From: a virus
Taxonomy: Duplodnaviria > Heunggongvirae > Uroviricota > Caudoviricetes
Length of the DNA stretch: 64,000 nucleotides
Direction: 5' to 3' (one strand)
IMG/VR virus record: IMGVR_UViG_3300031740_000001
The notes below the pieces were generated by a model, which worked only from the letters and a program-made list of their open reading frames with translations, had not been told where the DNA came from and searched no databases. A program made the translations under genes and the position numbers. Of the stretch, positions 6,548-33,675 are shown piece by piece; position 1 is the stretch's first letter, and each line of letters opens with the position of its first letter.

Positions 6548-6569
6548 GGTTCCCTCCTTCCACCAGTGT

Positions 6570-6899: not shown

Positions 6900-6904
6900 G
6901 TCGG

Positions 6905-7995: not shown

Positions 7996-7996
7996 G

Positions 7997-8818: not shown

Positions 8819-8866
8819 ATCAAAAGCCCAATGCCAAGCAAGAGCATGAATATGAACCGGTCAACC

Positions 8867-10041: not shown

Positions 10042-10043
10042 TC

Positions 10044-11903: not shown

Positions 11904-12429
11904 TTTCGTGTTCCTCGTCCTTGATGATGTCCCTGAACAGATCCTTGTGAAACCTTGCTGCCGTAATGAGAATCTGCCTGCGTGCGTCTGTCTCGTGCCC
12001 GTTCTTCGTGTACTTGTACCAGCCGATCCTACGCATCCGGTCGTTGTTTGCCAACTTCTTAGCCGGGCTCGCGCCGTTGGTGGTGAGAGAACAGTTCATC
12101 TCGTCTGCGATCGTGCGCAACACACCGATCACGCGGAGTGCGTCTGGCTGATTGGTGAGCGGCTGACCACCTTTAGCCTGCGTAAAATTCTCGGTAGCGA
12201 TTAAACACGGATTAACAGGTGTCTGCTGGATGAGCGACACCCGCATGATCTGAGTCATCATCCAAGACTTGATTTCGTCACGCATTAGCTCAGCGGACGC
12301 GAAGACCGTGAGGTGAGTAATGGAGGGCACCCAAAGTGCTACGCCGCTTACCTTTCCGGGATCCACGCCGAAGATGGCGTGGTCTTCTAGACTGCCAAAA
12401 GGCTTGAAGTGGCTCATGCGTACACCCAC
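11890..12429 (-). CDS. RuvC-like Holliday junction resolvase
   Basis: It carries GVDPGKVSGVALW, the RuvC/YqgF catalytic D-containing motif. An alternative ATG at 12417 overlaps the polymerase stop (ATGA). Confidence 0.55.
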   Translation of the reverse strand: MGVRMSHFKPFGSLEDHAIFGVDPGKVSGVALWVPSITHLTVFASAELMRDEIKSWMMTQIMRVSLIQQTPVNPCLIATENFTQAKGGQPLTNQPDALRVIGVLRTIADEMNCSLTTNGASPAKKLANNDRMRRIGWYKYTKNGHETDARRQILITAARFHKDLFRDIIKDEEHENATC

Positions 12430-14177
12430 TCAGACTTCTCGCCCCAACGTGGGCCGAAGGACACACTGGCCGTGATCGGCACAGGGTACTCGTTGCTGTT
12501 CATGACCTGCTGGAGGGTGTGCGCCGCGTCCTTCATCAGCTCTTGGGGAATGTCCAGGATGATCTCATCGTGAACGGGAAGGATCATGTACGGGCCGAGG
12601 CCAGCGGCGTGAAGCTCAAGCTGCTTCTGCTTGAACATGCTCGCGGCCCATCCGGAGATCAGGTAGTTGATGAGCGCGTACTCCTTGCCGGGGTCGGCAA
12701 TGTGATGCCGTCCAGTGAGCGGGCACTGGATGAAACCTTGCTGCATACCTAGTCTGTAGACGTAATTGATGTATTGCTCGATCTTCGGGTATGCCGCGTT
12801 CAGCTGGTTGTTGATGAACAGCATTTGCTCGAACGAGACACCAGCGGTGACCGCTTGACGGGCGATACCCGCGCCATAAACCTTGGCGTACATGGCGCTC
12901 TTGGTGGGGGAGCGCCGTGGATCTGACTTCATCAGGTGTGGATCCTGGAAAATCTGACGCGCGATGGTAACGAAGAAATCGTCTGGTCCATGGAATGCGG
13001 ATCGCAGGCCTTCATCACCCGAGAGGATGGCTAGCCCGCGCATCTCGATCTGGTCGAAGTCGCAAAACATCATGATGTTGCCAGGACGTGCCGTGATGCT
13101 GTTGCGGACCACCTTCACACCAGGCGTGTCTGTGTTGGTGCGGGGGAGGTTCTGGAAGTTCGGCTCACTCATGCTGCAGCGACCATGCCGCGCGCCGAGC
13201 GTGTTCAAGCTGGGGCGGATGATCGAATTTGAATCTGCGTTATTGAGATAGAATTGTAGGTAGGTGCTGGCCATCTTCTGCAACTGGCGACGGGAGAGAA
13301 CGGCCTTGGCCAGCGGGTGGTCGATGCCTTCCAGAACGTCAGCGTCCAGGCTCAGCGCACCCTTCTCGGTTTGCTTGTCGAACTGGAAGCCAGCGCGTTG
13401 CAGCACCTCGATCACTTTCTGGTTGGAACCAGGCGTGATTCCGTACTCAGCCTTGACCCACTTCTCGACCGAAACGCAGTACTCGCGAAACTGCTTCAGA
13501 TAGGTCTCCACGTGCGGAATGTCCACGTGAACGCCGTTTTGCATCATGTCGCGCGCTACCCACTGGTAGGCAGTCTCCAGCTCCACGGCGAACTGCGCGC
13601 CGTGCTGGGCGACGATAGGCTCGTGGTGCTCACGAAGCTGGTAGGTCAAGACAGGGTCCAGCGCGCCATATCGCCAGTACCAGGGGTAATCCCACGGCAC
13701 AGTCGCCCACGTCCAGCCGTTCTGCTCCATCGCTTCGTCCAGGTACTTCTGACCTGCATAAGCGGTAGGGTCCACGTGCCGGGAAGCCTGCGCCTTGAGC
13801 GCGCGGGACATATGCGGCTCAATGACGTGGCTCATTACACCAACGTCTTTGATCCGGTGCTTTTCCAGCGTGACGCCCGCCTTTTCCAACATGGAGTAGT
13901 CGAAAATGGCGTTCATCAGGTCTATCGGGCCTTCGTGCTGGCGCACGATGTCGAGAAATAGTCCCCACCAGAGGTCTTTGGGCAGCAACCAGCCGTGCTC
14001 AGCGTTTCCTATCTGAACGGTGCGGACGTAATCGTCTCCCTGCCACTTCAGCCCGGTTGTTTCAGTATCTATAGCTATCGATCCATTAAGGCCTACATCC
14101 TGCCGAAACCAGTCACACATGTTTTTTGCGTCATCAAAATTTCGGACAAGATGTAATTGCACATTATCAAGACTCAT
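12414..14177 (-). CDS. family A DNA polymerase (Pol I-like) with a 3'-5' exonuclease domain
   Basis: Exo I motif is IAIDTETTGL. Pol motif B is RRSPTKSAMYAKVYGAG and motif C is LPVHDEIILD. Confidence 0.85.
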   Translation of the reverse strand: MSLDNVQLHLVRNFDDAKNMCDWFRQDVGLNGSIAIDTETTGLKWQGDDYVRTVQIGNAEHGWLLPKDLWWGLFLDIVRQHEGPIDLMNAIFDYSMLEKAGVTLEKHRIKDVGVMSHVIEPHMSRALKAQASRHVDPTAYAGQKYLDEAMEQNGWTWATVPWDYPWYWRYGALDPVLTYQLREHHEPIVAQHGAQFAVELETAYQWVARDMMQNGVHVDIPHVETYLKQFREYCVSVEKWVKAEYGITPGSNQKVIEVLQRAGFQFDKQTEKGALSLDADVLEGIDHPLAKAVLSRRQLQKMASTYLQFYLNNADSNSIIRPSLNTLGARHGRCSMSEPNFQNLPRTNTDTPGVKVVRNSITARPGNIMMFCDFDQIEMRGLAILSGDEGLRSAFHGPDDFFVTIARQIFQDPHLMKSDPRRSPTKSAMYAKVYGAGIARQAVTAGVSFEQMLFINNQLNAAYPKIEQYINYVYRLGMQQGFIQCPLTGRHHIADPGKEYALINYLISGWAASMFKQKQLELHAAGLGPYMILPVHDEIILDIPQELMKDAAHTLQQVMNSNEYPVPITASVSFGPRWGEKSEWVYA

Positions 14178-14599
14178 GATCTGCTCCGTGCTGCTTTAGA
14201 CATTTTTTCACGAGCTTCAGGAGAATGTTTCTTACCAAAAAATGGGTTCTTTTCACCATTCAAATCTGGACGAGTGCGTTTTCCCTCTGCGTAGCTTTTT
14301 CGTAGACTTGCACTTATTCTTTGTTTTATTTCTTCAGAATGAGGTTTATTTAATCGTGGCGGGTGAATACGTTGGTGACAACTGCGACAAAGCCAGATCA
14401 AATCGAGGATGTGTTCATCGCTGTAGCCATTATGGTGATGCCCATCTAGATCTCTATCCGGAGAACTTCCTCCACAATGATCGCAACAAGAACTTCTGAT
14501 CAGGGCACCGTCTCGGAGAGCTTTTTGCACAGCAGCATGAACTTTCCGGCGACGATAACGGCTAATCGGAGCAGGTGGGTTGACGTTTTCCAGTCCCAT
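14174..14599 (-). CDS. HNH endonuclease (free-standing, likely homing)
   Basis: It has CCDHCGGS...DGHHHNGY...LCRSCHQRIH. Base composition is locally AT-rich. It is inserted between the polymerase and the dCMP deaminase with ATGA/stop coupling. Confidence 0.75.
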   Translation of the reverse strand: MGLENVNPPAPISRYRRRKVHAAVQKALRDGALIRSSCCDHCGGSSPDRDLDGHHHNGYSDEHILDLIWLCRSCHQRIHPPRLNKPHSEEIKQRISASLRKSYAEGKRTRPDLNGEKNPFFGKKHSPEAREKMSKAARSRS

Positions 14600-14607
14600 T
14601 CGTACTC

Positions 14608-15186
14608 CTAGTCACAAGACGTGGTGCTGGGGTCACAACCGTGTGCACACGGAGCTATCCATCCCCTTGCTGCGGTAATGAGGGGCTCGCTGAAGTGGCG
14701 GTTGTCCTCGAACGATACCCAGAAACCTAGCTTGCGCACAGTCCAGTAATCGTCTTCTTGATAACGGTATTCGTGCTTACCATCCACGCCGATGTGTATC
14801 CGGCGCAGGCCGGAATTCGAAATAAGCTTCAGGCAACCAGTACACGGAAAGCTGGTCACGTAGATCGTGCCCTGTAACCGCTGAGTGCGGTCAGACATCA
14901 TCAGCGCGTTGGCCTCTGCGTGCAGGGATGGGCAGTCCGAATAGTCAATCATTTGACTATGTTTTCCGCCTGTCGTCGCCATCTTCACGCGTTTACACCA
15001 TTCGGTGCACGGTTCGTCGTTGTGCTGAAAGCCAGCGGGCGGCCCGTTGTAGCCCTCCCCGATGATCCGGTTTCGGGCATCGGTGATGACCGCGCCTACC
15101 TGGTCGCGAACGCACAAGCTGCGCTTGGCGATCTCGCGGGCCATGGATAGGCGCGTTTGGTCCCAGTTAGGCCGTTCTAGCTGCAC
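14608..15186 (-). CDS. dCMP deaminase (cytidine/deoxycytidylate deaminase fold)
   Basis: Zinc motifs are HAEANAL and PCTGCLKLI. Confidence 0.8.
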   Translation of the reverse strand: MQLERPNWDQTRLSMAREIAKRSLCVRDQVGAVITDARNRIIGEGYNGPPAGFQHNDEPCTEWCKRVKMATTGGKHSQMIDYSDCPSLHAEANALMMSDRTQRLQGTIYVTSFPCTGCLKLISNSGLRRIHIGVDGKHEYRYQEDDYWTVRKLGFWVSFEDNRHFSEPLITAARGWIAPCAHGCDPSTTSCD

Positions 15187-15749
15187 TCCCAGTGCCTTCC
15201 CGTGCTCGGGTGAAAGATGCTGTGCTCATCACGAATGACCTGGATCAGGCCAGCCATGTGGCTGACCCAATACTCAGGCAGAGGGAAGTAGCTTGATAAG
15301 ACACCCTCCTTGGTGCGGCTGGTCTGCTGAGCGCGCATACGCCGCTCACGCGTGATGACTACTGCTGAGGCCGTGGAGCGCTGGCGACCGTACCAGGCTG
15401 AGGCTGTGTGGTGCTTGCCCTTGTAACCGAAGAACCGGTTCCGGAAGCGGGTGATGAGCTTCGGGTTCGGGATCTCGCTGAAGAGCCACGCCGTGGCCTC
15501 CCTGACGGTCGCTACGGCCTTGGCAATGCTTACCTTGACTCGGCTTAGGGTACGGCGGAAAAGTCCGCGAGAACGGCGTACAGCGGGCTTAACAGGTGTC
15601 TTGGGCCATGCCTTGACGATGGCGTACTCACCAGTCGCGTCCTGCTTCTTGGCAAGCATCGTGACGAGCAGCTCCATCCCGCCCGTCTCATCCGGCAGAA
15701 GCGCGTGGCGCTGGATGACTTCGGTGTCGTCGATTTCCATGATGGTCAT
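15177..15749 (-). CDS. hypothetical protein
   Basis: 190-aa ORF with good GC3 codon usage, tightly coupled to its neighbours. Confidence 0.5.
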   Translation of the reverse strand: MTIMEIDDTEVIQRHALLPDETGGMELLVTMLAKKQDATGEYAIVKAWPKTPVKPAVRRSRGLFRRTLSRVKVSIAKAVATVREATAWLFSEIPNPKLITRFRNRFFGYKGKHHTASAWYGRQRSTASAVVITRERRMRAQQTSRTKEGVLSSYFPLPEYWVSHMAGLIQVIRDEHSIFHPSTGRHWECS

Positions 15750-15862
15750 GGGATCCTTCTCCTTTTCGATGATTATGGTTGATGGTTCAACAAAGAAGGC
15801 CAGCTGAGGATCTCCCTACGGGGTAGGAGTGGAGAGAGATCTCAGCTGGCCATAAGTGGATC

Positions 15863-16552
15863 CTAACGTGTTTTCCGGGTGTCCGGGCCGATGAGCCCTT
15901 GCAATGCGTCCCAACGGGCAGCCTTGTCCGCGAGAACAGGATCCACGACCGGACCAGCGTTGGAGAGGTCTTCAAGTGCTCCGACCGCGTTCTCGACGGT
16001 TTTCCTGATGTTGTCGAGGACAGTACCGATACGGTCCAGGCCTTCAGCTGCGCCTTCCAGTGAAGTCTGAACGTTGTCGATCTTCTGCTGCTGGTCCTTG
16101 ACTGTCACGACCGTCGCTCCATTTCCGTTCTCAGTACCGTTTGAGTTTGAATTTGCGGCTGCAGCAGCGGCATTTGCGCGCCGAACTGCTGCGGCCTTGA
16201 GAGCGCCAAGCTTGTGGTTTTGCTTGCGTTGCGCTTCCTTGAGCCGCAGTTCATCACGTTCCGCGATGATCGCGGCCGTTTCCTGCTCCTTCTTGGCGTT
16301 GGTGTGTAGACGCAGGTGAGAGCGCACGCTCACTCCTTCTAGATGCCAGTAGGTGCAGGTCGGCGGATCCGGATGCACGCACTGGTGGACCACGCGGCCA
16401 TCATCGAGAACGCACTTGTCCACGCCGTAGGTGGGTGAAAGCCCATCTGAGTACTTGGACAAGGGGGTGAAGATCTTCGCGGTTTCACGATGAACCACCC
16501 TGCATCCGTCAATCACGTCCTTGTCTGTGACGGGTGTTGCAGCTTCCGTCAT
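15863..16552 (-). CDS. hypothetical protein with an N-terminal Cys/His cluster and a C-terminal coiled-coil
   Basis: It has CRVVHRE...CVLDDGRVVHQCVHPDPPTC, then an Ala/Gln-rich coiled coil. Confidence 0.5.
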   Translation of the reverse strand: MTEAATPVTDKDVIDGCRVVHRETAKIFTPLSKYSDGLSPTYGVDKCVLDDGRVVHQCVHPDPPTCTYWHLEGVSVRSHLRLHTNAKKEQETAAIIAERDELRLKEAQRKQNHKLGALKAAAVRRANAAAAAANSNSNGTENGNGATVVTVKDQQQKIDNVQTSLEGAAEGLDRIGTVLDNIRKTVENAVGALEDLSNAGPVVDPVLADKAARWDALQGLIGPDTRKTR

Positions 16553-16965
16553 GTTCTTTCTCCTTTTGGTTCTTGGGTTGTTCCTTATTTGATAATCAGG
16601 AGGTTAGCATATTCTGGCACGCCTGCAAGTCAGCCACAACCACAGCAGGTGCATATTGCCATTACCAGGGCAAACACGGCGTACAAGAAACGATCAAGGT
16701 TGCCTTGCTGTCCTCTTCTCATTCCTTCTCCTTCCGGAATTGATGTTGGGCCGCAGGGTAAATCCGGAAACCCCTGCGGCCCGCACCAGCCTGTACGTCG
16801 GCTGTCCACCGTCCAGATCTTTCTGTCCTAGGAAACAGGGCAACTGGAGTCCCAGTCAGAATCCCATCTGACCAGCGGGGATGTTACTTTTGTTTTAACC
16901 ATCTCCCCCTGTTGAGAGTTTGATGGGCTGGAAGTCGTCATCGCACATCCAATATTTCGACCTCG

Positions 16966-17051
16966 GGCGAACGGGAGGACTCGAACCTCCAACCAACGGT
17001 GACTTCTCGCGCGATCCCTCACCGCTGCTCTGCCAATTGAGCTACCTTCAC
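16966..17051 (-). ncRNA. tRNA-like element (Leu-type acceptor and D-arm, canonical T-arm, aberrant 16-nt anticodon-region loop); possible pseudo-tRNA
   Basis: The minus-strand RNA has a 6/7-bp acceptor, then a D-arm GCTC-AATTGGCA-GAGC. A CGGTGA/TCACCG stem encloses 16 nt. The T-arm is GGAGG-TTCGAGT-CCTCC. No 7-nt anticodon loop can be formed. Confidence 0.35.
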
Positions 17052-17225
17052 CATTGAGTGAGTTTCTGTGTTTAGCGTCGTAAAACCCAGCTCCGGAAAA
17101 TCCGACGTTGCCCACCTGTTAAGGCGTCGTAACCCCGGTGGCCCGAGTTACGCCGTGCGACGCTCTGCCAAGCTGAGCTACAGGATAGTACCGGACTAGC
17201 TCTCATTCGAGCGTGGCGGGTATTT

Positions 17226-17253
17226 TATCCAGCCTGGATTTGAACCAGGGACC
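17226..17253 (-). ncRNA. orphan tRNA 3'-half-like module (T-arm CCTGG-TTCAAAT-CCAGG plus a 7-nt acceptor-like tail)
   Basis: It has a perfect canonical T-loop. No matching 5' acceptor lies within 100 nt. Confidence 0.3.
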
Positions 17254-17262
17254 TTCGCAACG

Positions 17263-17338
17263 TGGGAAGGACAGGATTCGAACCTGCATTACGCCATGCT
17301 TTTGCCCGGAGCTGTTGCCTGATCAGCTACTTCTTCCC
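17263..17338 (-). ncRNA. tRNA-like element (6/7-bp acceptor and canonical T-arm GCAGG-TTCGAAT-CCTGT; no anticodon stem-loop)
   Basis: The body is of tRNA length (76 nt). Only a GCTG-loop-CAGC hairpin is formed in place of the D and anticodon arms. Confidence 0.3.
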
Positions 17339-17659
17339 TTGAAGATGAGTTCTTGTTATTTTACGTCGTTGAAACCCATCCCCACAAACTTCGACGTTTG
17401 CCCAGAGTTATACAGATGTGGGCGTCTCTGCCTGGATTGATACTCGCCAAATGATGCCACATACCAGGTAAGGCGGCGTGAAGATGAGAGGGCTCGCACC
17501 TCCATTACCACCCTTGCGAGTGGCGTCCTGCATGTGGCTTTGGGATTGGTTACCTACCGGCACTTTTAAACGACATCTTCTCCGCCACGGGAGCCTATAC
17601 GGCTGAGCTGCCGAAGCCCTCTAGCACGATCGTGTTCCGTGACTTGCACTGCAGTACCG

Positions 17660-17733
17660 TAGCGGAGGCTGGATTTGAACCAGCGACCTACAGGTTATGA
17701 GCCTGGCGGGCTACCGAGCTGCCCTACTCCGCT
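17660..17733 (-). tRNA. tRNA-Met (anticodon CAU; elongator type, could be Ile2 if lysidinylated)
   Basis: It forms a canonical cloverleaf: AGCGGAG-TA-GGGC-AGCTCGGTA-GCCC-G-CCAGG-CTCATAA-CCTGT-AGGTC-GCTGG-TTCAAAT-CCAGC-CTCCGCT-A. It is 74 nt with no encoded CCA. Confidence 0.75.
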
Positions 17734-17746
17734 TTGGCGGGCTTGC

Positions 17747-17760
17747 GGTGGATACTCACC
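17747..17760. repeat. conserved hairpin GGTG-GATACT-CACC, one member of the GGYG-GATACT-CRCC family. Other copies lie at 17862-17875 and, degenerate, at 17424-17438.
   Basis: It has an identical 6-nt loop with compensatory stem changes (GGTG/CACC versus GGCG/CGCC). It occupies the T-arm position of a degenerate repeat unit. Confidence 0.4.
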
Positions 17761-17824
17761 CGTTGCCCAATTCGAACACCTTAACCCTAGTATCAGGGAG
17801 AGGTAGACCTCCAAGGTATTCGAC

Positions 17825-17847
17825 ACCAGGGTATCTCTCCCCGGTCG
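17825..17847. repeat. 23-nt direct repeat ACCAGGGTATCTCTCCCCGGTCG (copy 1; copy 2 at 18045-18067)
   Basis: The two copies are exact. On the minus strand it folds into a 6-bp stem with a G·U pair and a 7-nt loop. Each copy follows a CACCAAG linker downstream of a tRNA-like or hairpin module. Confidence 0.5.
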
Positions 17848-18066
17848 CTTTGGTGGATCGCGGCGGATACTCGCCTTGACCCTTGCACCACCGTTAACCA
17901 GTATCGGTTGGCCCTTTCGGGCGGGCAATGGTGCCTTCAGGTACCACGCACTAGGTGCCGTACCCTCTGGGTCGCCTGAGGCGGCTTCCCAGGTCCTGCT
18001 CACGCGGTGCTGTTGCCAGTCCGTAGCGAGCAGTACCAGGGTATCTCTCCCCGGTCGTTCTTGGTG

Positions 18067-18153
18067 TCTAGACGGTCCGACTCGAACGGACTGTACACCC
18101 CGGAGGACCCTTCTACGGGACTGCCCTTGGATCCGGTTTTGAGTAGCGTCTAG
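18067..18153 (-). ncRNA. tRNA-like element (perfect 7-bp acceptor CTAGACG/CGTCTAG within a palindromic GTCTAGAC pair, canonical T-arm GTCCG-TTCGAGT-CGGAC, 52-nt non-canonical body)
   Basis: It is 87 nt. No anticodon stem-loop with U33 can be formed. Confidence 0.3.
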
Positions 18154-18266
18154 ACAGGTCTTCATCATCCAAGCATCACAGGATTGTCGCCCCGCACTGC
18201 CCAGGTCGTACTGCTTTTTGTTGCTCCGTGGCCTTGCTAACCACTTGGTTCCACTAGATTAGCGAA

Positions 18267-18548
18267 TTAGAACTTCGCTGTCAACTTGCGGCGTTTGTCC
18301 TGGTCAGGCGCGAATGGGCTTTTCTTGATCTCTGCCGGTTTGTCGATCTTGTGGCTGGAAATGACCGTGTTGCTGGTTTCCAGCCCTTCGAGCATGCGCG
18401 CCACTTCGGCGCGTTGCCTGCGTGGCCCAGTGATCATGTCGTATCCGAGCCACACCAGGAAACCGACGAAGGCAAGGATAATAGCCCAAATCAGACCATT
18501 CGCAACGTTACCAAACCATTCAACGTCAGAGGTGTAGAAAACGTTCAT
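18267..18548 (-). CDS. small membrane protein
   Basis: It has a TM helix LIWAIILAFVGFLVWLGY. Its ATGA start overlaps the upstream stop. Confidence 0.5.
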   Translation of the reverse strand: MNVFYTSDVEWFGNVANGLIWAIILAFVGFLVWLGYDMITGPRRQRAEVARMLEGLETSNTVISSHKIDKPAEIKKSPFAPDQDKRRKLTAKF

Positions 18549-19078
18549 CAGGCAACCACCGTCCGGTAGACCTCGCGCAGTTTGTCGTCGTGGCTGGCTG
18601 CTTGGGCCAGCGCGCGAGCATGCTGCGGAGGAAGGAACGTGCTCTGCGTGCCGCGAGTCTTGCGCACGGTGAGTAGCTCTACCACTTCGTACTCAGACTC
18701 CGTAAAGGAGATCTTCTCGTAGTCGCGCTCACCCTCGCAGATGCTCGGGCCACGCGTCACCACGATGTACGTTTGTGGGTCTTCGTCTATACGCCGGTAG
18801 ATCTCCACCTCAAGCCACCTGCATGCAGAGCACTTGACGCCTTTCGGCGCGGTGTCCGTGTCCGGGTGATCACGGTGGGTATCGGCCTGGCTGCTGCCTT
18901 CTGCCAGCAAGACACCGGCAAACTCGTAGTCGATATTCTCGATTTTGAGCTGCATGATGTACGGCTGCGCGATGTCGGGCAGTTCCTTGTCCACGTTGAT
19001 GACTTCGAGATCGCTCACGTCGAGTTCACTCGCGTCAGAAGATGGGTGTTTCACCTTTTTCGTTATCGTCATCCTCAT
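18548..19078 (-). CDS. hypothetical protein
   Basis: 176-aa ORF. It is the first gene of the leftward transcription unit that starts in the 19.1-kb divergent region. Confidence 0.5.
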   Translation of the reverse strand: MRMTITKKVKHPSSDASELDVSDLEVINVDKELPDIAQPYIMQLKIENIDYEFAGVLLAEGSSQADTHRDHPDTDTAPKGVKCSACRWLEVEIYRRIDEDPQTYIVVTRGPSICEGERDYEKISFTESEYEVVELLTVRKTRGTQSTFLPPQHARALAQAASHDDKLREVYRTVVA

Positions 19079-19259
19079 TTTCCCTTTCTTCGGGGTTGTT
19101 TTTCTTGCGTGTGGCTAGTGTAGCGCATCTGCCGTAAGTGGCTAGACTGCTGTCACACCTTGTGTTCGGCTATCGCCTTTTGTGTTTTGATGATCAAAAT
19201 GGTGGCCGAACGTCTGAGGGATTCTCAACCTTTTTAGCTACACGCGAGGAGAATCGAAT
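19079..19259. promoter_or_regulatory. divergent intergenic control region with duplicated GTGGCTAG(T/A) boxes
   Basis: A 180-bp non-coding gap lies between the divergent genes. The boxes are GTGGCTAGTGTAG and GTGGCTAGACTG, 25 bp apart. An AGGAG Shine-Dalgarno precedes ATG 19260. Confidence 0.4.
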
Positions 19260-22109
19260 ATGACGGTATCACAATTTAACAACGAAGGTGGATCAAAAGG
19301 CTCTGACCAGGGGATTCCCTCGGTAGAAGATCACTTGGAACAAGGCCGGAAGATCCTTTCCACGGCGCTGGATCTGGCTGGTCGCGGATTTCGCGTGTTC
19401 CCGGTGCACGGTCTGCGGTGGGTCAAGTCGATCGTTCCGGTCGGCTCGGCCACTGCTGTGCCGGGTGGAGATTTGGGGGGTGGTCGTGGGGGAGGCAGCG
19501 GTGATCAGGGAGAAGGAGCGGGAGCAGGACGAGAGGAAGAGCTGGAGGTCGCGCAAAGGATAGAGCTGCGGTGCACGTGCGGGGTGGTTTCGTGCGCGAA
19601 CATCGGCAAGCACCCGGTAGGCGGGCTGGTGCCACACGGCTCCAAGGACGCGAGCAAAGACCAGCTGCAGGTGGGCAGCTGGTTCGCAGTGCCGAACCTG
19701 GAAGCGGCCCGAGAGCGTTCGTGGGTGCCGTGGAATCTGGCTGTCGCCACGGGCGAAGGCCTCGTTGTCATCGACGCGGAAGCGCGCCAGATTAACGCGG
19801 CAATGCCCACGGGCTTGGACGTGCTGGACGACTGGGAGAACTGGACGCGAGGCACCTCGTTGCCGCCAGCCGCTGGTGTCGTGAATTCCGTTATCGTAAT
19901 AGCGGAAGATGGCTCGATCGCTGTGCAGAGCAGCGGGGATCTGAAGCCTTCCGCCATAGAGGGAGAGGTGGAACGGGAGGCCTACTGGCCAGGCACGTTG
20001 CGGGTCAGAACAGGATCAGGCGGTTTGCATGTCTACGTGCGGGTGAGCCCGGAATTGCGGGTGAAGTCGCGAAATCGCGTACTGCCAGCGGTGGACATCA
20101 AGGCAGATGGCGGATATGTGCTGGCACCACCCAGTAGGCACGCCTCGGGCGGGGTGTACTCCATCGCAGAAGGTAAATGGAGTGGGATCGCTGCAGCTGC
20201 GGAAGACTTGGTGGGATGGCTTCTCACGGTAAAGGGCGGCCGGTATGCGACTAGGCGGCTGCAGGATACCGGCGCTGGTGCCAGCGAGCCTGTGGACTAT
20301 GACTTTCACAGAATCGTTGCTGGTAGCGGCTGTCCGGCAGGGTTCCGGGACTACTTCATCAATGACTTGTGCTTCCGGTTGCGTCGTGCCGGGACGCGGC
20401 TGGAAGACGCCAGTGCCGCACTCCGCAAGGAGTGGACGAAGATGGAGCAGCCCAAGGACGAGTTCTATGACTGGAACACGTGTCTCTACAAGCTGCGGCG
20501 GGTGTGGGAAGAGGTCACCCCGGAAGACGTGACGGAGTTGCCCGCGTGGCGTCCGCCTGGTGTAGGAGAAGTCCCTCATGTCGTTAACGTCCCGATGCCC
20601 GCTATTGCGGCGGCAAGTGGTGCAGGGGAAGTCATCGTCATGCGTGCTACGGGCGCGCCAGCTGGAGACCTGGTGGAGGTCGCAGAAGACGGTGGGGTGA
20701 GCATCGGTCCCGGCAGCACGTGGGAGCTGCTGGGCCGTCGTGACCTCACCATGCAGCTTTCAGACACTGGAAATGCGAAAAGATATGCACAGCGTATGCG
20801 CGAAACTGTGCGTTTCTGTGCAGATGAGGGCAAATGGTACGTGTGGGACGGCAGTAGGTGGGCCGTGGACACACTCAACCGAGCGCTCCAGCTAACAGAA
20901 GAGATCATCAAGGATCTGTACGCGGAAGCACAAAATCCAGCCATCACAGAAGACGAGCAAACAGCCGTCCTGCGGTGGGCTGCACAAAGTGAGGCTGCCG
21001 CCAAGCGCAAAAACATGCTTGAGCTGGCAGAAGTGGAAAAGGGCATTGCTATTGCCGCAGACAAGCTGGACGCAGACCCGTGGACGCTGGTCGTGGAGAA
21101 CGGGACACTGGACCTGAGATCAGGCATGATTCGCGAATCACGTGCAGAGGATCTGAACACCAAGAGCGCGGCTGTTGCCTACAACCCTGCCGCCACGTGC
21201 CCGAACTGGATAAGGCACATCGAGTTTGTGACGGGTGGAGACCAGGTCCTCGCGAGGTATTTGCAGCGGGCTGTGGGCTACTCGCTGACCGGTTCGATCG
21301 TAGAGCAAAAGGTGCTTTTTCTGCACGGAGATGGCGCAAACGGAAAAAACACCTTTATGGATGTCATTGCGGCCATGTTGGGTGATTACGCGATGGCTGC
21401 AGACGAGAATTTCCTCAGTGGGGACCACCACGAACACCCGACGCAACTCGCGGTTCTACGAGGCAAGCGTCTGGTATATGCGGACGAAACGGACGAAGGA
21501 AAGAAGATCAAAGAGAGCCGGATCAAGCACTTGACCGGCTCGAAGACCATTCGCGCGAGGTTTATGCGGCAGGACAGCTTCGAGTTCCCAGCCCAGTTCA
21601 AGATCTGGATCATGGGCAATCACAAACCGCAGATTGCGGGCAATGATCAGGGGATCTGGCGAAGGCTGAAGCTTGTGCCCTTTTCGCAAACGCTTACAGA
21701 TGATCAAAAGATCCTCGGCTATGACGAGATTCTCATGCAAGAGCTTTCGGGGATTTTGGTGTGGGCGCTGGAGGGGTTGAAGGCCTGGCACCAGCTCGGC
21801 GGGCTGGGTGAAGCGGAACAGGTCACCAAGGCCACCAAGGAGTATCGGGAAGAGGAAGACCTGCTGGGGCAGTGTTTCCAGGAGCTGACGGTGGCAGGGG
21901 AAGAGGAGTTCTTCGAGCCGCAGACGTTTTACGACGGCTATGCATCCTGGTGTCATCGTAATGGAATTAAGGACATCAAGACCAAGAACATGATTGGGCG
22001 TGAGCTGGCGAAGCCAGCGTTCGGCCTGCGCAAGGGGCAGAAGTGGCCCCACGGGCGCGTGTGGTTCGGAGCGCGGATGCGGTTGTCGCAGGAAGAAATG
22101 GTTTCTTGA
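19260..22109 (+). CDS. bifunctional DNA primase-polymerase (prim-pol) N-terminal domain fused to a D5/P4-alpha-type SF3 helicase
   Basis: The N-terminal motif is GFRVFPVHG.... The central region resembles a D5_N domain. The Walker A is FLHGDGANGKNTF. A low-complexity Gly-rich insert (GGDLGGGRGGGSGDQGEGAGAG) lies near residues 60-85. Confidence 0.75.
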   Translation: MTVSQFNNEGGSKGSDQGIPSVEDHLEQGRKILSTALDLAGRGFRVFPVHGLRWVKSIVPVGSATAVPGGDLGGGRGGGSGDQGEGAGAGREEELEVAQRIELRCTCGVVSCANIGKHPVGGLVPHGSKDASKDQLQVGSWFAVPNLEAARERSWVPWNLAVATGEGLVVIDAEARQINAAMPTGLDVLDDWENWTRGTSLPPAAGVVNSVIVIAEDGSIAVQSSGDLKPSAIEGEVEREAYWPGTLRVRTGSGGLHVYVRVSPELRVKSRNRVLPAVDIKADGGYVLAPPSRHASGGVYSIAEGKWSGIAAAAEDLVGWLLTVKGGRYATRRLQDTGAGASEPVDYDFHRIVAGSGCPAGFRDYFINDLCFRLRRAGTRLEDASAALRKEWTKMEQPKDEFYDWNTCLYKLRRVWEEVTPEDVTELPAWRPPGVGEVPHVVNVPMPAIAAASGAGEVIVMRATGAPAGDLVEVAEDGGVSIGPGSTWELLGRRDLTMQLSDTGNAKRYAQRMRETVRFCADEGKWYVWDGSRWAVDTLNRALQLTEEIIKDLYAEAQNPAITEDEQTAVLRWAAQSEAAAKRKNMLELAEVEKGIAIAADKLDADPWTLVVENGTLDLRSGMIRESRAEDLNTKSAAVAYNPAATCPNWIRHIEFVTGGDQVLARYLQRAVGYSLTGSIVEQKVLFLHGDGANGKNTFMDVIAAMLGDYAMAADENFLSGDHHEHPTQLAVLRGKRLVYADETDEGKKIKESRIKHLTGSKTIRARFMRQDSFEFPAQFKIWIMGNHKPQIAGNDQGIWRRLKLVPFSQTLTDDQKILGYDEILMQELSGILVWALEGLKAWHQLGGLGEAEQVTKATKEYREEEDLLGQCFQELTVAGEEEFFEPQTFYDGYASWCHRNGIKDIKTKNMIGRELAKPAFGLRKGQKWPHGRVWFGARMRLSQEEMVS

Positions 22110-22120
22110 TGTAGAAAAAT

Positions 22121-22156
22121 CCGCCCTGCTCTGGAAAGAGCGGGGCGGATTTTCGT
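22121..22156. terminator. bidirectional rho-independent terminator
   Basis: The sequence CCGCCCTGCTCT-GGAA-AGAGCGGGGCGG has a T-run on the + strand (ATTTTCGTTGTCGTTTTT) and an A-run upstream. It therefore works for the convergent genes on both strands. Confidence 0.6.
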
Positions 22157-22179
22157 TGTCGTTTTTGTGTTTCTAGAGG

Positions 22180-22500
22180 TTAGAGGTCATCTGCCAGCTG
22201 GACCATGGATCGATAGAGGGACCACGGCGTGTCGATGATCGTGGAATAGCGCACCACGTGGAGGACGCCAGGTGGAATGGTGTGTTGTGGAGCTACCTCA
22301 AAGGTCTCCACGATAAAGCTGGCGTCAGTATGGTCGATGCTGTTTCCGACCTTCTCGACAATTCGCCCAGAAAAGCGCTCTCCAGTTTCGTCGACGTAGG
22401 TGAACCACATGCCGACCAAGGGCGAGAGCGCCTTGCGGTCAGGTGAGATCTCGTAGAAACCCATCAGGTCGTCGCCAGAGGGTTCGAAGTTCGTCGTCAT
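22180..22500 (-). CDS. hypothetical protein
   Basis: 106-aa ORF that ends at the bidirectional terminator. Confidence 0.5.
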   Translation of the reverse strand: MTTNFEPSGDDLMGFYEISPDRKALSPLVGMWFTYVDETGERFSGRIVEKVGNSIDHTDASFIVETFEVAPQHTIPPGVLHVVRYSTIIDTPWSLYRSMVQLADDL

Positions 22501-23060
22501 GAGCTAAATGGTAGCGCGTGGGCGGGGTACGCGTGGGATAGAAGGATGAAGATGAGTAGGAATAGGAGGAGCTGGATACGGGGAGGTAGGGATTTTGCAA
22601 ACGAATCTCGCTGAGAATGTGTTAGAAACGCGTTAGGGCAGAGATTTGTTAGGTTCGATGCATATCGGATTTCTAACGGATTCCTAGCGGATTTCCTAAC
22701 GGAATTTTTGGTAGGTTGAGTAAGTTGACGAACCATAGTTTATTAGGAGTTATTCTTATGTAGTATTTATGTTTTTATATGTCCTAACAAATATATCAGA
22801 TATTTATACTCTGATACTCTAAGAGAAGAGAGGGAGAAAAGAGAGAGAGATAAAGGGGCAATTAAATAGAATAGGAGTTCTGCCCTAATATAGGTATGGT
22901 TTGTCCGTTTCTTCTCGACAAACGCAAGGGGGGTCCCTTATAGGGGAATGGGGGGTCAAAAATGCGATATTCCGTTAGGCCAGAGATGGGAGTCAACCTC
23001 TACCGTCTCGGTTTGGGCCTTCGGTACGCTTGTTTTTGAGGTAGGGATCAAGAGAAGGGG
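22501..23060. promoter_or_regulatory. AT-rich iteron/operator region, a candidate origin of replication and/or divergent immunity-control region
   Basis: Three 11-bp-phased repeats CTAACGGAtt / CTAGCGGAtt / CTAACGGAat lie at 22673-22706, with an inverted copy TCCGTTAGG at 22969. GTTAGGGCAGAG occurs at 22633, inverted at 22878, and as GTTAGGCCAGAG at 22970. GTTAG occurs three times at 22620-22660. A 38-nt polypurine tract (GA repeats) lies at 22821-22858. The region is far more AT-rich than its flanks. Confidence 0.5.
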
Positions 23061-23066
23061 ACCGAT

Positions 23067-23861
23067 GTGGAACCGGTGGAGCCTCCGTTTGACCAGTCAC
23101 TTTATGAGCTGCTTGGAGGGCAAGAGTACAGGAGGGTCCAGGAGCGGATCAAGCGGGCCTGGAGTCCTTGGGTGACGACGGGGATGGTTCCGCTGGTCAA
23201 GGTGGGGGAGGATCAGGCGGGTCCGTGGTGGGAAGTGGTGCTCAAGGGTGGGGATGCACTCACCTGCTTGGCACCGATAAGGCCTGGTCAGGTGGGGTGG
23301 GGAACGACCAAGACAGTGGGGGTGTGCGATAAGCGCGCGGGGTGGGGAACGGTGCACGAGGGTGCGGGGTACTGCCGCTGGCATGAGAAACTGGTAGATG
23401 GGAAAATGGCTGGTGGGGATGGTTATCGAGGAAGAACGGGAGCGTGGGTGATGGCACACGGTTTTGCTCGGGCGCTGGACGTGTCGCCGTGGGAGGCGCT
23501 GCTCACGGCGGTGAAGATTGCCGCTGGTCGAGTGGCGTTTATCGAGGCCAAGCTGGGTGAGGCGAACCGGGACGAGGACTTGATGCCCGAAGGTGAGCTG
23601 GCCTGGTGGGTCCGGCAGGCGGAGATGTGGCACGACCGGATGGCGAAGGTCGCGAAGATGGCGATCGACGCCGGGGTAGCTGAGCGCATGGTTCGGCAGG
23701 TGGAGCTTGAGGCGGAGATGATGCTCAAGGCCACGCAGTTGACGTTTGCCGAGCTGGGGCTCGATGATGTGACGCGCGAGCGTGCGTTGGGTATGATGGG
23801 TAAACACCTGCTGGAGCTGGAGTCCGCTGAAGCGGTGGACGCGCTTGAGGTGCTGAAATAA
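23067..23861 (+). CDS. hypothetical protein with an internal Cys/His cluster
   Basis: It has a GTG start with a GAAGGGGA Shine-Dalgarno. It is the first gene of the rightward arm. Cys/His motif: CDKRAGWGTVHEGAGYCRWHE. Confidence 0.5.
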   Translation: MEPVEPPFDQSLYELLGGQEYRRVQERIKRAWSPWVTTGMVPLVKVGEDQAGPWWEVVLKGGDALTCLAPIRPGQVGWGTTKTVGVCDKRAGWGTVHEGAGYCRWHEKLVDGKMAGGDGYRGRTGAWVMAHGFARALDVSPWEALLTAVKIAAGRVAFIEAKLGEANRDEDLMPEGELAWWVRQAEMWHDRMAKVAKMAIDAGVAERMVRQVELEAEMMLKATQLTFAELGLDDVTRERALGMMGKHLLELESAEAVDALEVLK

Positions 23862-23877
23862 CGACATCGAGAGGAAA

Positions 23878-24483
23878 ATGAACATGGTAGGAAAGAGCGA
23901 GCAGCTGCGCAGGCAGGCGGCTGAGGACATGGGCAAAGTGGCGTCGCTGGACGACAAGGCGTTTGCGCTGGCTGGCTTGGCGACGATCGTTGCTGTGCTG
24001 ATCGGCTACGCGGGTTTCGTAGCGTTTGCTGGCGAGTGGATCGATCTCGCGTGGACCGAGACCAGCAGGCCTGCGGCCGTGGAGATCACGTACAACGTGC
24101 TGGTCATCGTGGGTGGCTTCATCTGGGCCATGCTGGCTGCTTCCGCGTGGATGCTGTACAGGGTGACCAAACTTCGCAAGGGTGCTAAGGCGCTGTTGAT
24201 GCAGGCTGCCGAAGTCGAGACGCAGGAAAAGGCGCTCGCGGCCAAGAAGGCGGAAACGGCCAAGGCGGCAGAAGTCTCCGAAGTGCAGCGAATTACACAA
24301 AAGCGTCTTGAAGAGCAGCGCCAGCTCGAAGAGGCTGAGCTGGCGGATCACGCTTTCCGGAAGGCCGAGCAAGCACAGCGCGTGGCCAAGGCTGTGCAGG
24401 ACACCCGCGTAGAGCGCCAGGGGCGAGATTCTGGCGGCTCGAACAAGCCGGGGGGTACCTCAACCCAGGGCAAGGGGCGTTAG
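23878..24483 (+). CDS. membrane protein with a long coiled-coil
   Basis: Two TM helices near the N-terminus, then an A/E/K/Q-rich coiled coil. Confidence 0.5.
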   Translation: MNMVGKSEQLRRQAAEDMGKVASLDDKAFALAGLATIVAVLIGYAGFVAFAGEWIDLAWTETSRPAAVEITYNVLVIVGGFIWAMLAASAWMLYRVTKLRKGAKALLMQAAEVETQEKALAAKKAETAKAAEVSEVQRITQKRLEEQRQLEEAELADHAFRKAEQAQRVAKAVQDTRVERQGRDSGGSNKPGGTSTQGKGR

Positions 24484-24512
24484 ACGCTCTACGGACTGCT
24501 GACGGGCTCCGT

Positions 24513-24827
24513 TTGACGGCTCCAGTGCTTGTGCTAGGCTGGAGCCACGAAGACGAAGAGAAGGGGAGGCAAGTGAGCAGACGACGTTGGGTACTGCCGT
24601 TCTGGTCTGAGGTCGCGAGTTGGGTGGCGCAAAGGCTGCCCAACCGCGTCAAGGCGCATATCTGGCTTCAGGCGTACGAAGAGCTTGAGCTGCACTACCG
24701 TTCTGTTATGGAGAAGGAAGAAGACGGCTATACAATCCTGGACACTGTTTCGGCGGTACAGGTCGAGAATTTGCGCCGTTGGCTTTTCCGGGATCAGCTC
24801 AAGGGCGAATTAAAAGAGGTATCATGA
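24513..24827 (+). CDS. hypothetical protein
   Basis: 104-aa ORF. Confidence 0.4.
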   Translation: MTAPVLVLGWSHEDEEKGRQVSRRRWVLPFWSEVASWVAQRLPNRVKAHIWLQAYEELELHYRSVMEKEEDGYTILDTVSAVQVENLRRWLFRDQLKGELKEVS

Positions 24828-25018
24828 ACGTAAACGTTGAGGCACCTGCGCAAGCGGGTGCCCCTTCTATTGCAGTCATCATTACTAAGAATGGGGTGCA
24901 ATATGCTCTTGAACAGGACATTCCTGTTTGGATGATCGCAGAAAGTGATATTGCAGGAGTTGCTTATGAACTTGCAGTTTCACTCGCTGTGATGATTGAA
25001 AACGAAGAGGAGGGCTGA
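24824..25018 (+). CDS. hypothetical protein (64 aa)
   Basis: ATG with an AAAGAGG Shine-Dalgarno. The start overlaps the upstream stop. Confidence 0.45.
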   Translation: MNVNVEAPAQAGAPSIAVIITKNGVQYALEQDIPVWMIAESDIAGVAYELAVSLAVMIENEEEG

Positions 25019-25261
25019 TGAACCAATCACTGGAGGACTGGCTAGCTGATCGACCGCAGATCATCAAGGATCTCGCGAGGAGTCACCCGCCAGACGGTGA
25101 GTATCAGCCTGGCCAACGGCCTAGACGATGACCTCTATGCGGTCTACAGCTACCACGAGGACGGCACCTTGACGGTTTCTCGATACTCACGCCCGACGCT
25201 GCTTTTCATGTGGAACGTTTTCGGAATGAAGCCAGAGGATCTAGTGAGAATCGATGAATGA
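25018..25261 (+). CDS. small gene with a possible +1 frameshift or disruption. An ATG-initiated frame (25018-25131) and a higher-GC3 downstream frame (25097-25261) overlap.
   Basis: The ATG overlaps the upstream TGA. Frame A stops at 25129-25131. Frame A+1 encodes ...YAVYSYHEDGTLTVSRYSRPTLLFMWNVFGMKPEDLVRIDE and ends in an ATGAATGA overlap with the next gene. Confidence 0.3.
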
Positions 25262-25535
25262 AACGTTGCAAGAGCGCAAACTCCAGCATGGCTGCTCGCG
25301 CTGCTCAGAGCGCTGGAATGGGAAGAAAACTGCACATTGCGGATCATGTCATGAAACGTTCAGCGGACCGAGCGCTTTCGACCAGCACCGGGTAGGCGGC
25401 ATGTGCGTGCAGGCAGACGCGACGACGATGCTGCGGTATCTGCTCGCGCGCCAAGAACGTGCCGGGTACGTGGTGTGGGGGTATGCTGGCGCGGACGAAC
25501 GCTGGGACAACGAAGATGGGGATGAAGACGAATGA
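25254..25535 (+). CDS. zinc-finger-like small protein
   Basis: CSRCSERW...HCGSCHE motif. Confidence 0.5.
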   Translation: MNETLQERKLQHGCSRCSERWNGKKTAHCGSCHETFSGPSAFDQHRVGGMCVQADATTMLRYLLARQERAGYVVWGYAGADERWDNEDGDEDE

Positions 25536-25765
25536 CAAACGAAAAGGCATATGCAGTTGTATTTACCGAATTAGTTGACGGACAAATGGTCAACAGCCAG
25601 TGGCACTTCAGCGAAGATGATTTCCGTGAAATCATGAGACACGTGAAAGTGCACTACGGTTCACCCGATCGCGCCTGGATGGTATCCATGGATGACGTGC
25701 TCATGGTGCGGAACGAAATGGAGGGCAGAGTTTCCTCCATGGTGGTAGTGGACAAAGAGGACTAA
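25532..25765 (+). CDS. hypothetical protein
   Basis: 77 aa, ATGA coupling. Confidence 0.5.
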   Translation: MTNEKAYAVVFTELVDGQMVNSQWHFSEDDFREIMRHVKVHYGSPDRAWMVSMDDVLMVRNEMEGRVSSMVVVDKED

Positions 25766-25993
25766 ATGGCAACGGGCGTCGACCAGTGCATCCTATGTCT
25801 AGCAGGGCATATGCAGCACGTCGCTGCCCTTTGCCGTGAAACACATACGCCGTGGAAGAATTGCGGGGTAGACTGTTGCGTAGAGGAGGAAATGGAAAAT
25901 GATGACGATAATGTGGATTCTGCTCATTTTGCTCGCACGGCTGATCTTTGCGGTGATCATGCAACTGGTGGTTATCCGGATCGCGCTTCATGA
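25766..25993 (+). CDS. Cys-rich small protein (uncertain 3' end)
   Basis: It has CILCLAGH...C...C..CC. Its last ~95 nt overlap the next ORF and have poor GC3, so the true end or extent is uncertain. Confidence 0.35.
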   Translation: MATGVDQCILCLAGHMQHVAALCRETHTPWKNCGVDCCVEEEMENDDDNVDSAHFARTADLCGDHATGGYPDRAS

Positions 25994-26123
25994 TGCGAAA
26001 GAGCCGTACTGGAGTGAGATTCGTGATGCGCTGTGGGAAGTGCACGCGGCAGTGGGGCTGAAATGGCTAGCCAGGGGCACGATGTGGATTGGCGTACGGC
26101 TGTGGCCAGCGGTGAAGGAATGA
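25899..26123 (+). CDS. small membrane protein
   Basis: It has a hydrophobic N-terminus, MWILLILLARLIFAVIMQLVVI, and good GC3. The start may be downstream, at 25911 or 25959. Confidence 0.45.
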   Translation: MMTIMWILLILLARLIFAVIMQLVVIRIALHDAKEPYWSEIRDALWEVHAAVGLKWLARGTMWIGVRLWPAVKE

Positions 26124-33566: not shown

Positions 33567-33639
33567 GCGGGCGTAGCTCAGCTGGCAGAGCTTCCGACTT
33601 TTACTCGGAATGTCGCAGGTTCGATCCCTGCCGCCCGTA
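33567..33639 (+). tRNA. tRNA-Lys (anticodon UUU)
   Basis: GCGGGCG-TA-GCTC-AGCTGGCA-GAGC-T-TCCGA-CTTTTAC-TCGGA-ATGTC-GCAGG-TTCGATC-CCTGC-CGCCCGT-A. It is 73 nt with no encoded CCA. Confidence 0.8.
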
Positions 33640-33675
33640 CGTAAGGACATCATCGAAACAGAAAAGGAGAGCACC

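Follow-up and report, generated by a model that had tools for sequence, protein, structure and literature searches.

Does the non-coding interval downstream of the primase-helicase gene of a tailed phage hold the origin at which its DNA begins to be replicated, or does it serve transcription, packaging or an RNA? The question is posed by a stretch of 64,000 nucleotides from IMG/VR record IMGVR_UViG_3300031740_000001 (tailed phage DNA, GC ~56%), called the window hereafter, and within it by the gap at 22501-23066, which a first-pass annotation made from the letters alone had taken for an origin of replication (iterons plus a DNA unwinding element), a repressor-controlled divergent switch, or both. 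The origin has held up and the switch has not: with a probability of roughly 0.6, the region at 22.6-23.0 kb is the origin of the phage, composed of iterons and an unwinding element that are read by the adjacent primase-helicase. In favor of this are a module conserved among relatives, phased repeats whose sequence is specific to each locus, a minimum of duplex stability, co-variation of the repeats with the primase, and homology of the latter to PriRep5, the fused primase-helicase of the Staphylococcus aureus pathogenicity island (SaPI) SaPI5 (structure 7OLA). The parts needed for the argument are the following; signed numbers, here and below, count from the anchor at 22745.

19260-22109, plus strand: primase-helicase gene, 949 aa
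21738-22106, plus strand: C-terminal domain of the primase-helicase, modelled as a winged helix with recognition helix DIKTKNMIGRELAKPAF
22501-23066: the gap, non-coding, 566 bp, starting 392 bp past the stop of the primase-helicase gene
22621-22652, minus strand: far-left cluster of three inverted iteron cores, with GTTAG at 22621, 22632 and 22648
22655-22668, no strand: small palindrome, TCGATGCATATCGG in the window and ATCGATTGnnACCGAT in relatives, read from sequence and alignment
22662-22703, plus strand: left-proximal direct iterons, ATATCGGA at 22662, CTAACGGA at 22673, CTAGCGGA at 22684 and CTAACGGA at 22696
22715-22753, plus strand: conserved 39-bp core, GTTGAGTAAGTTGACGAACCATAGTTTATTAGGAGTTAT, with invariant alignment columns
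22745, plus strand: anchor AGGAGTTAT, an invariant AG(T/G)A(G/C)TTAT
22751-22783, no strand: AT-rich block, putative DNA unwinding element, the least stable duplex in the window
22784-22802, plus strand: right-proximal pair, the phage-specific CTAACAAA at +39 and an invariant CAGATA at +52
22821-22858, plus strand: purine tract within a C-poor spacer of ~180 bp
22902-22907, plus strand: spacer box TGTCCG, conserved independently of the phage-specific motif; most relatives read AATGTCCGAWTC
22943-22957, plus strand: G-rich box GGGGAATGGGGGGTC with an A-run after it; relatives have GGGGGAACAGGC
22969-22979, minus strand: right-hand inverted iteron, ATTCCGTTAGG, 100% complementary to 22695-22705

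The repeats are clustered in the gap far beyond chance. GTTAG/CTAAC is found there seven times, against ~0.33 expected from the 37 occurrences elsewhere (Poisson P ~1e-7); all three exact copies of CTAACGGA in the 64 kb lie in the gap region, and so do four of the 11 matches of the window to CTARCGG, the genome-wide total of which equals the shuffled expectation. Altogether the module of the window has 8-9 motif sites. The GTTAG triple and the inverted copy ATTCCGTTAGG had been reported correctly, while several other details of the first-pass annotation stood only in part. The direct iterons announced as exactly 11-bp-phased are real at 22673, 22684 and 22696; ATATCGGA at 22662 is a fourth, degenerate direct copy, and the four starts are 11, 11 and 12 bp apart, with CGGAWT at 22666, 22677, 22688 and 22700. 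A longer repeat, GTTAGGGCAGAG, said to be present in both orientations at three places, is exact once only (22632); GTTAGGCCAGAG at 22974 is a co-oriented copy with a single mismatch, the inverted one at 22879-22888 extends over just 10 nt, and in L001, the closest relative, conservation does not include the long left copy. The purine tract, described as 38 nt of GA only, is pure for 30 nt (22821-22850), which is the longest purine run of the window, and continues with a T at 22851 and then AAAGGGG; the top strand of the gap region is C-poor as a whole (71 C in 527 nt). That this is the most AT-rich stretch holds narrowly by composition, the GC of 0.428 at 22501-23000 being the lowest of any 500-bp bin and only marginally below values of 0.432 and 0.434 elsewhere, and holds clearly by stability: in a nearest-neighbour scan of the 64 kb, the least stable 30-, 60- and 100-bp segments all lie within 22731-22830, the 30-mer starting at 22751 and the 100-mer at 22731. 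In the left half of the module, single-stranded DNA folds into stem-loops better than shuffled sequence in six of eight phages (z -2.5 to -6.3), because this half is composed of inverted iteron arrays. Other candidate elements were set aside. A 15-nt direct repeat (CGTTAGGGCAGAGAT/CGTTAGGCCAGAGAT) and an 11-nt GAGGTAGGGAT pair are not kept in L001 and are probably lineage-specific or chance extensions; look-alikes of IHF sites and DnaA boxes (TATTAGTAGTTAT, TGTCCG), inspected by eye only and with no dedicated DnaA-box search, are off consensus.

Whether such an arrangement means anything depends on its conservation, and relatives were not found at once: the region 19000-26000 has no DNA match among cultured phages, and scans of IMG/VR with single proteins gave no match, whereas an alignment-based scan did. 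The primase-helicase has ~60 close relatives among metagenome protein clusters, many of them on contigs of 65-69 kb, and the region downstream was recovered for 17 distinct related loci (20 if three duplicate pairs are included). They comprise loci at 55-78% primase identity (L001, L084, L085 with its duplicate L089, L002, L086, L087, L088, L003), loci at ~49% (L004, L005, L008 with L090, L010, L091, L092 with L093), and L169 (JAICRP010000192.1), a 72%-GC contig binned with a Nocardioides sp. metagenome-assembled genome. In all 17, as the original proposal required, a non-coding module of 330-640 bp follows the primase gene and is itself followed by a homologue of ORF264, the 264-aa open reading frame (ORF) at 23067-23861 (plus strand) that is the first gene to the right of the gap. 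Where gene calls exist for the closer relatives, the non-coding DNA that comes first past the primase-helicase gene is the module; it directly follows the primase stop in L002, L003, L086 and L088 and lies past a terminator in L001, the exceptions being the window, L085 and L087, which carry one minus-strand ORF in between.

The order of the parts is shared too. On the left, three inverted motif copies (at about -125, -114 and -98; the equivalents of the far-left cluster are offset by 0-12 bp among relatives) are followed by the small palindrome and by two to four direct copies, which are located one helical turn apart at -72 (-85 in L084), -61 and -49; the -72/-61/-49 sites are present in six of nine aligned phages (within 1 bp in L084), and L087, L088 and L003 keep -61 and -49. 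Then comes the core, GTTGAnTnnGTnnAnnAA...TnTAnnAGnAnTTAT, and after it the AT-rich block, which has a constant offset from the anchor (-4 to +6) in 10 phages and is the local stability minimum in 10 of 10 phages tested. The right side begins with a direct copy at +39, followed at about +48 by the invariant AACAGATA, of which the CAGATA at +52 is the 3' portion, and by a purine-rich, C-poor spacer of 150-200 bp with conserved TGTCCG and G-rich boxes, which in the relatives has no pure purine tract; it ends at +221 to +263 with one inverted copy or two (two in most of the other relatives), in most phages just ahead of the ribosome-binding site of the following gene. An nhmmer profile of core plus AT block matches each of 10 sequences once (the window and nine loci, L089 duplicating L085), always downstream of the primase. 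When a profile of the core was run over 169 loci, only members of the subclade that shares at least 55% primase identity were matched; the more distant clade keeps the architecture without the sequence of the core, and the parts come in the same order in the ~49%-identity loci and in L169. In the latter, at 4422-4690, the iteron module (CGTAACC/GTTACA) again comes after the primase gene and before an ORF264 homologue, a small additional ORF lying in between; its binning makes it a lead to the host of the clade.

What does change, within this scaffold, is the motif. It is 8-10 bp long and exists in at least 12 versions among the phages, at positions that are fixed to the base pair:

window and L001: CTAACGGA
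L084: CTAGCGG
L085 and L004: GTTACAGAT
L002 and L086: GTAGCAGAT
L088 and L003: GTAACAGAT
L087: GACAGAT-type
L008: GTTTCCGGT
L005: GTTACCGGT
L091: GTTACGGA
L093: ACGTAACA
L010: GAAACAGGT
L169: CGTAACC

Within each genome every copy bears the same version, and in each relative its own hexamer is strongly enriched in the module over the rest of the locus; thus CGCTAG occurs nine times in the 565-bp module of L084 versus three times in 7.3 kb, and GTAGCA seven times in the module of L086 versus 0 in 10.4 kb. That many copies change jointly while staying in place points to a protein that reads them by sequence and evolves in its specificity. The most interesting property of the element is this combination of a scaffold rigid to the base pair with a rapid, concerted turnover of iterons that appears tied to the winged helix of the primase.

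Which protein would read the iterons? The 949-aa primase-helicase has Pfam matches to Prim-Pol, D5_N and DUF5906/superfamily 3 (SF3) helicase, and profile matches to SaPI5 PriRep5 (7ola, E 7.5e-18), C962R of African swine fever virus (ASFV) and poxvirus D5; the closest primases of cultured phages match in the helicase half only (<41% identity), and Streptococcus phages are the largest group among the tblastn matches to that half (392 records). An AlphaFold2 (AF2) model of its C-terminal domain (predicted local distance difference test, pLDDT, 73.7) has a strand-helix-helix-wing topology. The top Foldseek matches are an RFX DNA-binding domain on DNA (probability 0.99, E 0.05), RFX5, the C-terminus of ASFV PrimPol, and the winged helices of forkhead and origin recognition complex proteins; none reaches E <= 0.001. 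The E-values are weak, but the fold class is consistent, and a winged helix is assigned with moderate confidence.

This domain changes along with the iterons. The comparison is based on the triple of window, L001 and L084, the pair L005/L008, and a 16-row table that covers 14 distinct phages. Over primase residues 1-880 the window is equally close to L001 (81.2% identity) and L084 (80.9%); over the last 55 residues it shares 70.9% with L001, which has the same motif, versus 46% with L084, which has a different one, and the recognition helix DIKTKNMIGRELAKPAF is identical to that of L001 at 17 of 17 positions and differs from that of L084 at about half of them. L005 and L008 have 93.7% identical DNA over 9.8 kb and motifs one base apart; 16 of the 27 differences between their primases fall in the last 53 residues, and the hot spot of divergence extends from the C-terminus of the primase through the module to about residue 40 of the ORF264 homologue. 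In phages with ACAGAT-type motifs the helix SKKxFAQELERRG(F/Y) is kept and the residue after it is T, Q or I where the motif has GTAGC, GTAAC or GTTAC, respectively, which is no more than suggestive. Iteron sequence and cognate primase C-terminal domain thus co-vary, a relation that is correlative only. The other flanking protein considered as a reader, the product of the gene at 23067, named in the first-pass annotation as a candidate binder, fails the same comparison: the N-terminal 110 residues of ORF264 are more alike across different motifs (window-L084, 81%) than within the same motif (window-L001, 66%), a pattern opposite to that of the primase C-terminus, and ORF264 therefore does not track the motif.

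Binding, melting, loading, priming and initiation itself at this site are what we infer from sequence, and they might proceed as follows. The C-terminal winged helix of the primase-helicase would recognize the phage-specific 8-10-bp iterons (CTAACGGA here); the three or four helically phased direct copies, together with the inverted copies on the left, would nucleate protein oligomers beside the core and the AT-rich block; the block at 22751-22783, as the most easily melted DNA of the window, would open, hexamers would be loaded, and the Prim-Pol domain would lay down primers. The direct sites at +39/+48 and the inverted site or sites ~180-210 bp beyond would bracket the purine-rich spacer, and may load a second hexamer or couple occupancy of the origin to expression of the next gene.

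Several observations weigh against such an origin. Cumulative GC skew, which had been recommended as a check, does not mark the gap: over the leftward genes of 1-19000 it stays level, between 19000 and ~53000 it climbs steadily, and since the inflection at ~19 kb follows the orientation of genes and transcription, the skew is uninformative about the origin. (The skew of the leftward genes is ~0 and not negative, so that the G-richness of the plus strand exceeds a coding-strand effect alone.) The sites that flank the AT-rich block are co-oriented and the opposite sets lie farther out; in most relatives the right-hand sites adjoin the ribosome-binding site of ORF264, a position that would suit a purely regulatory role as well. 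The fold of the C-terminal domain is backed by Foldseek E-values of 0.05 or worse and a pLDDT of only 73.7, and the co-variation comes from a handful of lineages; moreover, as the N-terminus of ORF264 differs between L005 and L008 too, the changes in this pair may have hitch-hiked in one recombined block.

How does the module compare with known origins? The SaPI origin is located immediately downstream of rep and has 6-12 penta- or hexanucleotide iterons, which a winged helix in the C-terminal domain of Rep recognizes; its centre is AT-rich, at least two iterons lie on each side in opposite directions, and Rep is self-loading (PMC9371898). Likewise, the module lies 3' of the putative initiator gene (directly so in L002, L003, L086 and L088), short element-specific repeats are confined to it (8-9 sites in the window), the AT-rich minimum at 22731-22830 lies between the -49 and +39 sites, the initiator would be an SF3 helicase with a C-terminal winged helix (modelled here, with moderate confidence), and the iteron appears matched to the C-terminal domain of the initiator, by correlation only. 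The orientation rule of SaPIs is not followed, as the sites at -72/-61/-49 and +39/+48 are co-oriented and the oppositely oriented sets are located 100-250 bp away, at about -125 to -98 and +221 to +263. Further differences are the motif length (8-10 versus 5-6 bp), the number of clusters (four versus two), the primase domain, which here is a Prim-Pol (archaeo-eukaryotic primase, AEP), the 39-bp core conserved across phages, and the kind of element, a siphovirus of ~65-80 kb; nor do we know of a SaPI counterpart to the purine-rich spacer of ~180 bp. In the Sulfolobus plasmid pRN1, a stem-loop of 100 nt that lies just past the 3' end of the prim-pol/SF3/winged-helix gene serves as the origin, and several phages were proposed to be arranged likewise (PMC4234260). 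The order of domains in its ORF904 (prim-pol, SF3 helicase, winged helix) is as in the window, the origin is just downstream of the gene past a terminator, and stem-loop potential is shared with the left half of the module; however, pRN1 has a single stem-loop without recognized iterons, while here the stem-loop arises from inverted iteron arrays and is accompanied by a separate AT-rich block and a right half.

The alpha protein of satellite phage P4, with primase, SF3 helicase and C-terminal winged helix, binds repeated octamers (type I iterons) at ori and crr; P4 requires these two cis sites, which are several kb apart, and its primase domain is not a Prim-Pol, whereas the window has no second cluster of the motif within 64 kb. 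In the Sfi21-type origin of Streptococcus thermophilus phages, a non-coding repeat segment lies directly downstream of a putative primase-helicase gene; it has no sequence similarity to the window, and its repeats are not known to follow a four-cluster plan. With lambda ori and the iteron plasmids (RK2, pPS10, P1) the module shares direct repeats beside an AT-rich unwinding element and inverted copies ahead of a neighbouring gene, the latter reminiscent of Rep autoregulation; but there the iterons are 17-22 bp long at a spacing of ~22 bp, a dedicated Rep or O protein binds them and recruits a separate helicase, and lambda ori lies within the O gene. The general design is hence known already from SaPIs, P4 and pRN1, and no concept is overturned. 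If the region is an origin read by the primase-helicase, both the origin and its recognition domain would be located for a large clade of uncultured soil phages, and a natural series would be at hand for decoding the recognition of iterons by winged helices, with a constant scaffold, at least 12 iterons, and winged-helix residues that co-change. This would bear on the diversification of replicon specificity, which may, for instance, prevent cross-talk when relatives infect the same cell, and would offer candidate orthogonal pairs of ori and initiator.

ORF264 deserves separate mention, for it is always the first gene after the module. Its 204 homologues are all unnamed or 'hypothetical' and none has a Pfam domain; ORF264 itself has no match in Pfam, NCBIfam or a PDB profile search and belongs to a PHROG of unknown function only. 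It has an invariant Cys/His motif, C-x19-C...AGxGTxHxGxGxCxxH with a C-x2-H end, and a helical, highly conserved C-terminal domain (AIDAGVAER); its AF2 model (pLDDT 81.5) gave no informative fold match, and none that is DNA-binding. Its identity to the homologues of the closest relatives, 83-86%, exceeds that of the primase, 76-78%. Streptomyces phages, JackieB (gp66) among them, encode distant homologues of its C-terminal half in their replication regions. In most relatives the homologue starts at a conserved GGxGTCGATG (L002 13280-13300); in the window (22980-23066), L001 and L084 that spot reads GGGAGTCAAC(C/T)TC, without the ATG, and the start is ~80 nt later with a different N-terminus, which indicates a shift of the start site in this subgroup.

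Could the repeats then be operators rather than iterons? The gap might be a transcriptional control region, with a promoter for the ORF264 operon and operators for a phage regulator, used for autoregulation or an early-to-middle switch and possibly involving looping; this would be compatible with an origin at the same place, and we consider it unlikely, if worth entertaining. About 40 plus-strand ORFs run from ORF264 onward and are never separated by more than 305 bp, which makes the gap by far the largest non-coding stretch of this arm, lying ahead of tightly packed genes; the right-hand inverted sites are just upstream of the ORF264 start in most relatives; turnover of phage-specific motifs is typical of repressor-operator pairs as well; and as a strong terminator ends the primase gene in the window and in L001, the next operon needs a promoter there. 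Yet in L002 and L003 no obvious terminator follows the primase, so that a promoter is not required everywhere (in L086 and L088 the ends of the primase genes were read only from the stop codon onward), a consensus scan found 0 sigma-70-like promoters against 1.1 expected, and the invariant columns give no convincing -35/-10 pair, an invariant TATnnT at 22768-22773 having, on manual inspection, no credible -35. At least nine sites over 350-450 bp at one locus and none elsewhere in 64 kb would make an atypical operator set, no conserved regulator is adjacent, given that ORF264 lacks a DNA-binding fold match and its N-terminus does not track the motif, and there is no conserved divergent gene. 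A divergent switch of the lambda OR type, as the first-pass annotation had it, was dropped altogether: no leftward gene is conserved, the flanking genes encode no helix-turn-helix, the consensus scan found no promoter-like (sigma-70-like) sites, the motif is confined to a single locus, and the gap is not the junction of the two arms. A different division of labor would make the origin bipartite, with the spacer, the CAGATA, TGTCCG and GGGGGAACAGGC-type boxes and the inverted iterons as a second functional unit, and with ORF264 as an accessory of initiation whose expression is gated by occupancy of the origin; ORF264 might, for example, remodel the origin or act as a coupling factor of the primase-helicase. 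We give this an outside chance; were it true, ORF264 would stand for a new family of origin-associated proteins in actinophage-like viruses.

Clusters of a phage-specific motif on both sides of AT-rich DNA at a single locus also resemble the pac site of P1, and a packaging site (pac/cos) or genome end, bound by a small terminase as in P1 or SPP1, could be imagined; no small terminase was identified, and the ORF upstream of the gene for the large terminase (TerL) has no family match. Such a site is very improbable here: the module lies 15.6 kb upstream of the TerL gene (38626-40212) and so not where pac or cos would be sought, it is at arbitrary internal positions in the five long contigs of 65-69 kb that were checked (L001, L002, L003, L004, L010), none of which begins or ends there, and its motif co-varies with the C-terminus of the primase. 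A structured non-coding RNA or 5' leader (attenuator, small RNA), transcribed from the C-poor spacer with its TGTCCG and GGGGGAACAGGC boxes, is hardly to be credited either. The top strand is indeed C-poor, and a long-range complementarity, TGTTCCCC...GGGGGAACA, exists in four of six relatives (L002, L003, L086, L088; in L002 at 13067-13075/13233-13243, bracketing ~170 nt of spacer), with no clear counterpart in the window; in addition, the TGTCCG box reads ATGTC(C/G)G(A/G) in seven of nine aligned relatives (such as L002, at ~13127-13145, L086, L087, L088, L003 and L084), possibly the start of an upstream ORF of 5-20 codons (MSE/MSD; MSG in L085). But this frame is not kept in the window and L001, Rfam 15 has no match at gathering score or E <= 1, RNAalifold on two subgroups returned one long-range stem that does not co-vary, with no clean compensatory changes, a hairpin with T-run before ORF264 is no better than in shuffled sequences (z -0.6 to -1.2), and the phased, oriented DNA repeats would be left unexplained. 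An origin read by the primase-helicase thus remains the reading we prefer.

The surroundings of the origin candidate bear on its distance from the primase gene and on its supposed place at an arm junction. The features concerned are:

12414-14177: family A DNA polymerase gene, leftward replication arm
same leftward arm: genes for an SNF2 helicase, a PD-(D/E)XK nuclease and an AAA_24 protein
22116-22153, plus strand: hairpin terminator, a 17-pair stem plus T-run, closing the primase gene
22180-22500, minus strand: ORF106, 106 aa, the sole leftward gene adjoining the gap
38626-40212: TerL gene in the rightward arm, which also has portal, major capsid and tape-measure genes

Contrary to the first-pass annotation, the leftward and rightward arms are not separated by the gap; they diverge at 19079-19259, and the primase-helicase gene is itself on the plus strand. 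The distance of 400 bp from that gene was stated correctly (392 bp past the stop), and it exists in the window only because the non-conserved ORF106 is inserted. ORF106 has no family match, and a leftward ORF is absent from its slot in six of eight closer relatives with gene calls (L001, L002, L003, L084, L086, L088). The minus-strand ORFs that do occupy the slot (window 22180-22500, L085 6809-7201, L087 6870-7253) are mutually unrelated, and the slot is hence a place of insertion rather than a component of a switch, apparently a hot spot at which accessory (moron-like) genes are acquired. The terminator can also be used by the convergent ORF106; an equivalent terminator-like hairpin is present in L001 and is not evident in L002 and L003.

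The phage looks like a siphovirus of ~65-80 kb, apparently lytic; the parent sequence of the window has 79.6 kb, versus 65-69 kb in the relatives. Its clade probably infects actinobacteria, as hinted by weak ORF264 homologues in Streptomyces phages, a DUF397 neighbour in L084, and the binning of L169 with Nocardioides. At 15621-15639 (minus strand) there is a gathering-level Rfam match (32.4 bits, E 0.0056) to a 19-nt model of the splice donor of human immunodeficiency virus 1 (HIV-1), almost certainly a chance hit given a model so short. Three tRNA genes are present: tRNA-Pro(AGG) at 16965-17051 (minus strand), which has 87 nt and a low Rfam score, tRNA-Met(CAT) at 17659-17733 (minus strand), and tRNA-Lys(TTT) at 33567-33640 (plus strand); the ORF described as following the latter 4 bp later is called at 33610-34215, its first 31 nt overlapping the tRNA. 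In the head-morphogenesis block, a 1244-aa protein (46970-50704, plus strand) has a C-terminal ADP-ribosyltransferase exoenzyme domain, and a 749-aa protein (50701-52950, plus strand) combines a 2'-5' RNA ligase-like domain with a region that matches portal/virion structural PHROGs; the two (46970-52950) may be effectors that are ejected.

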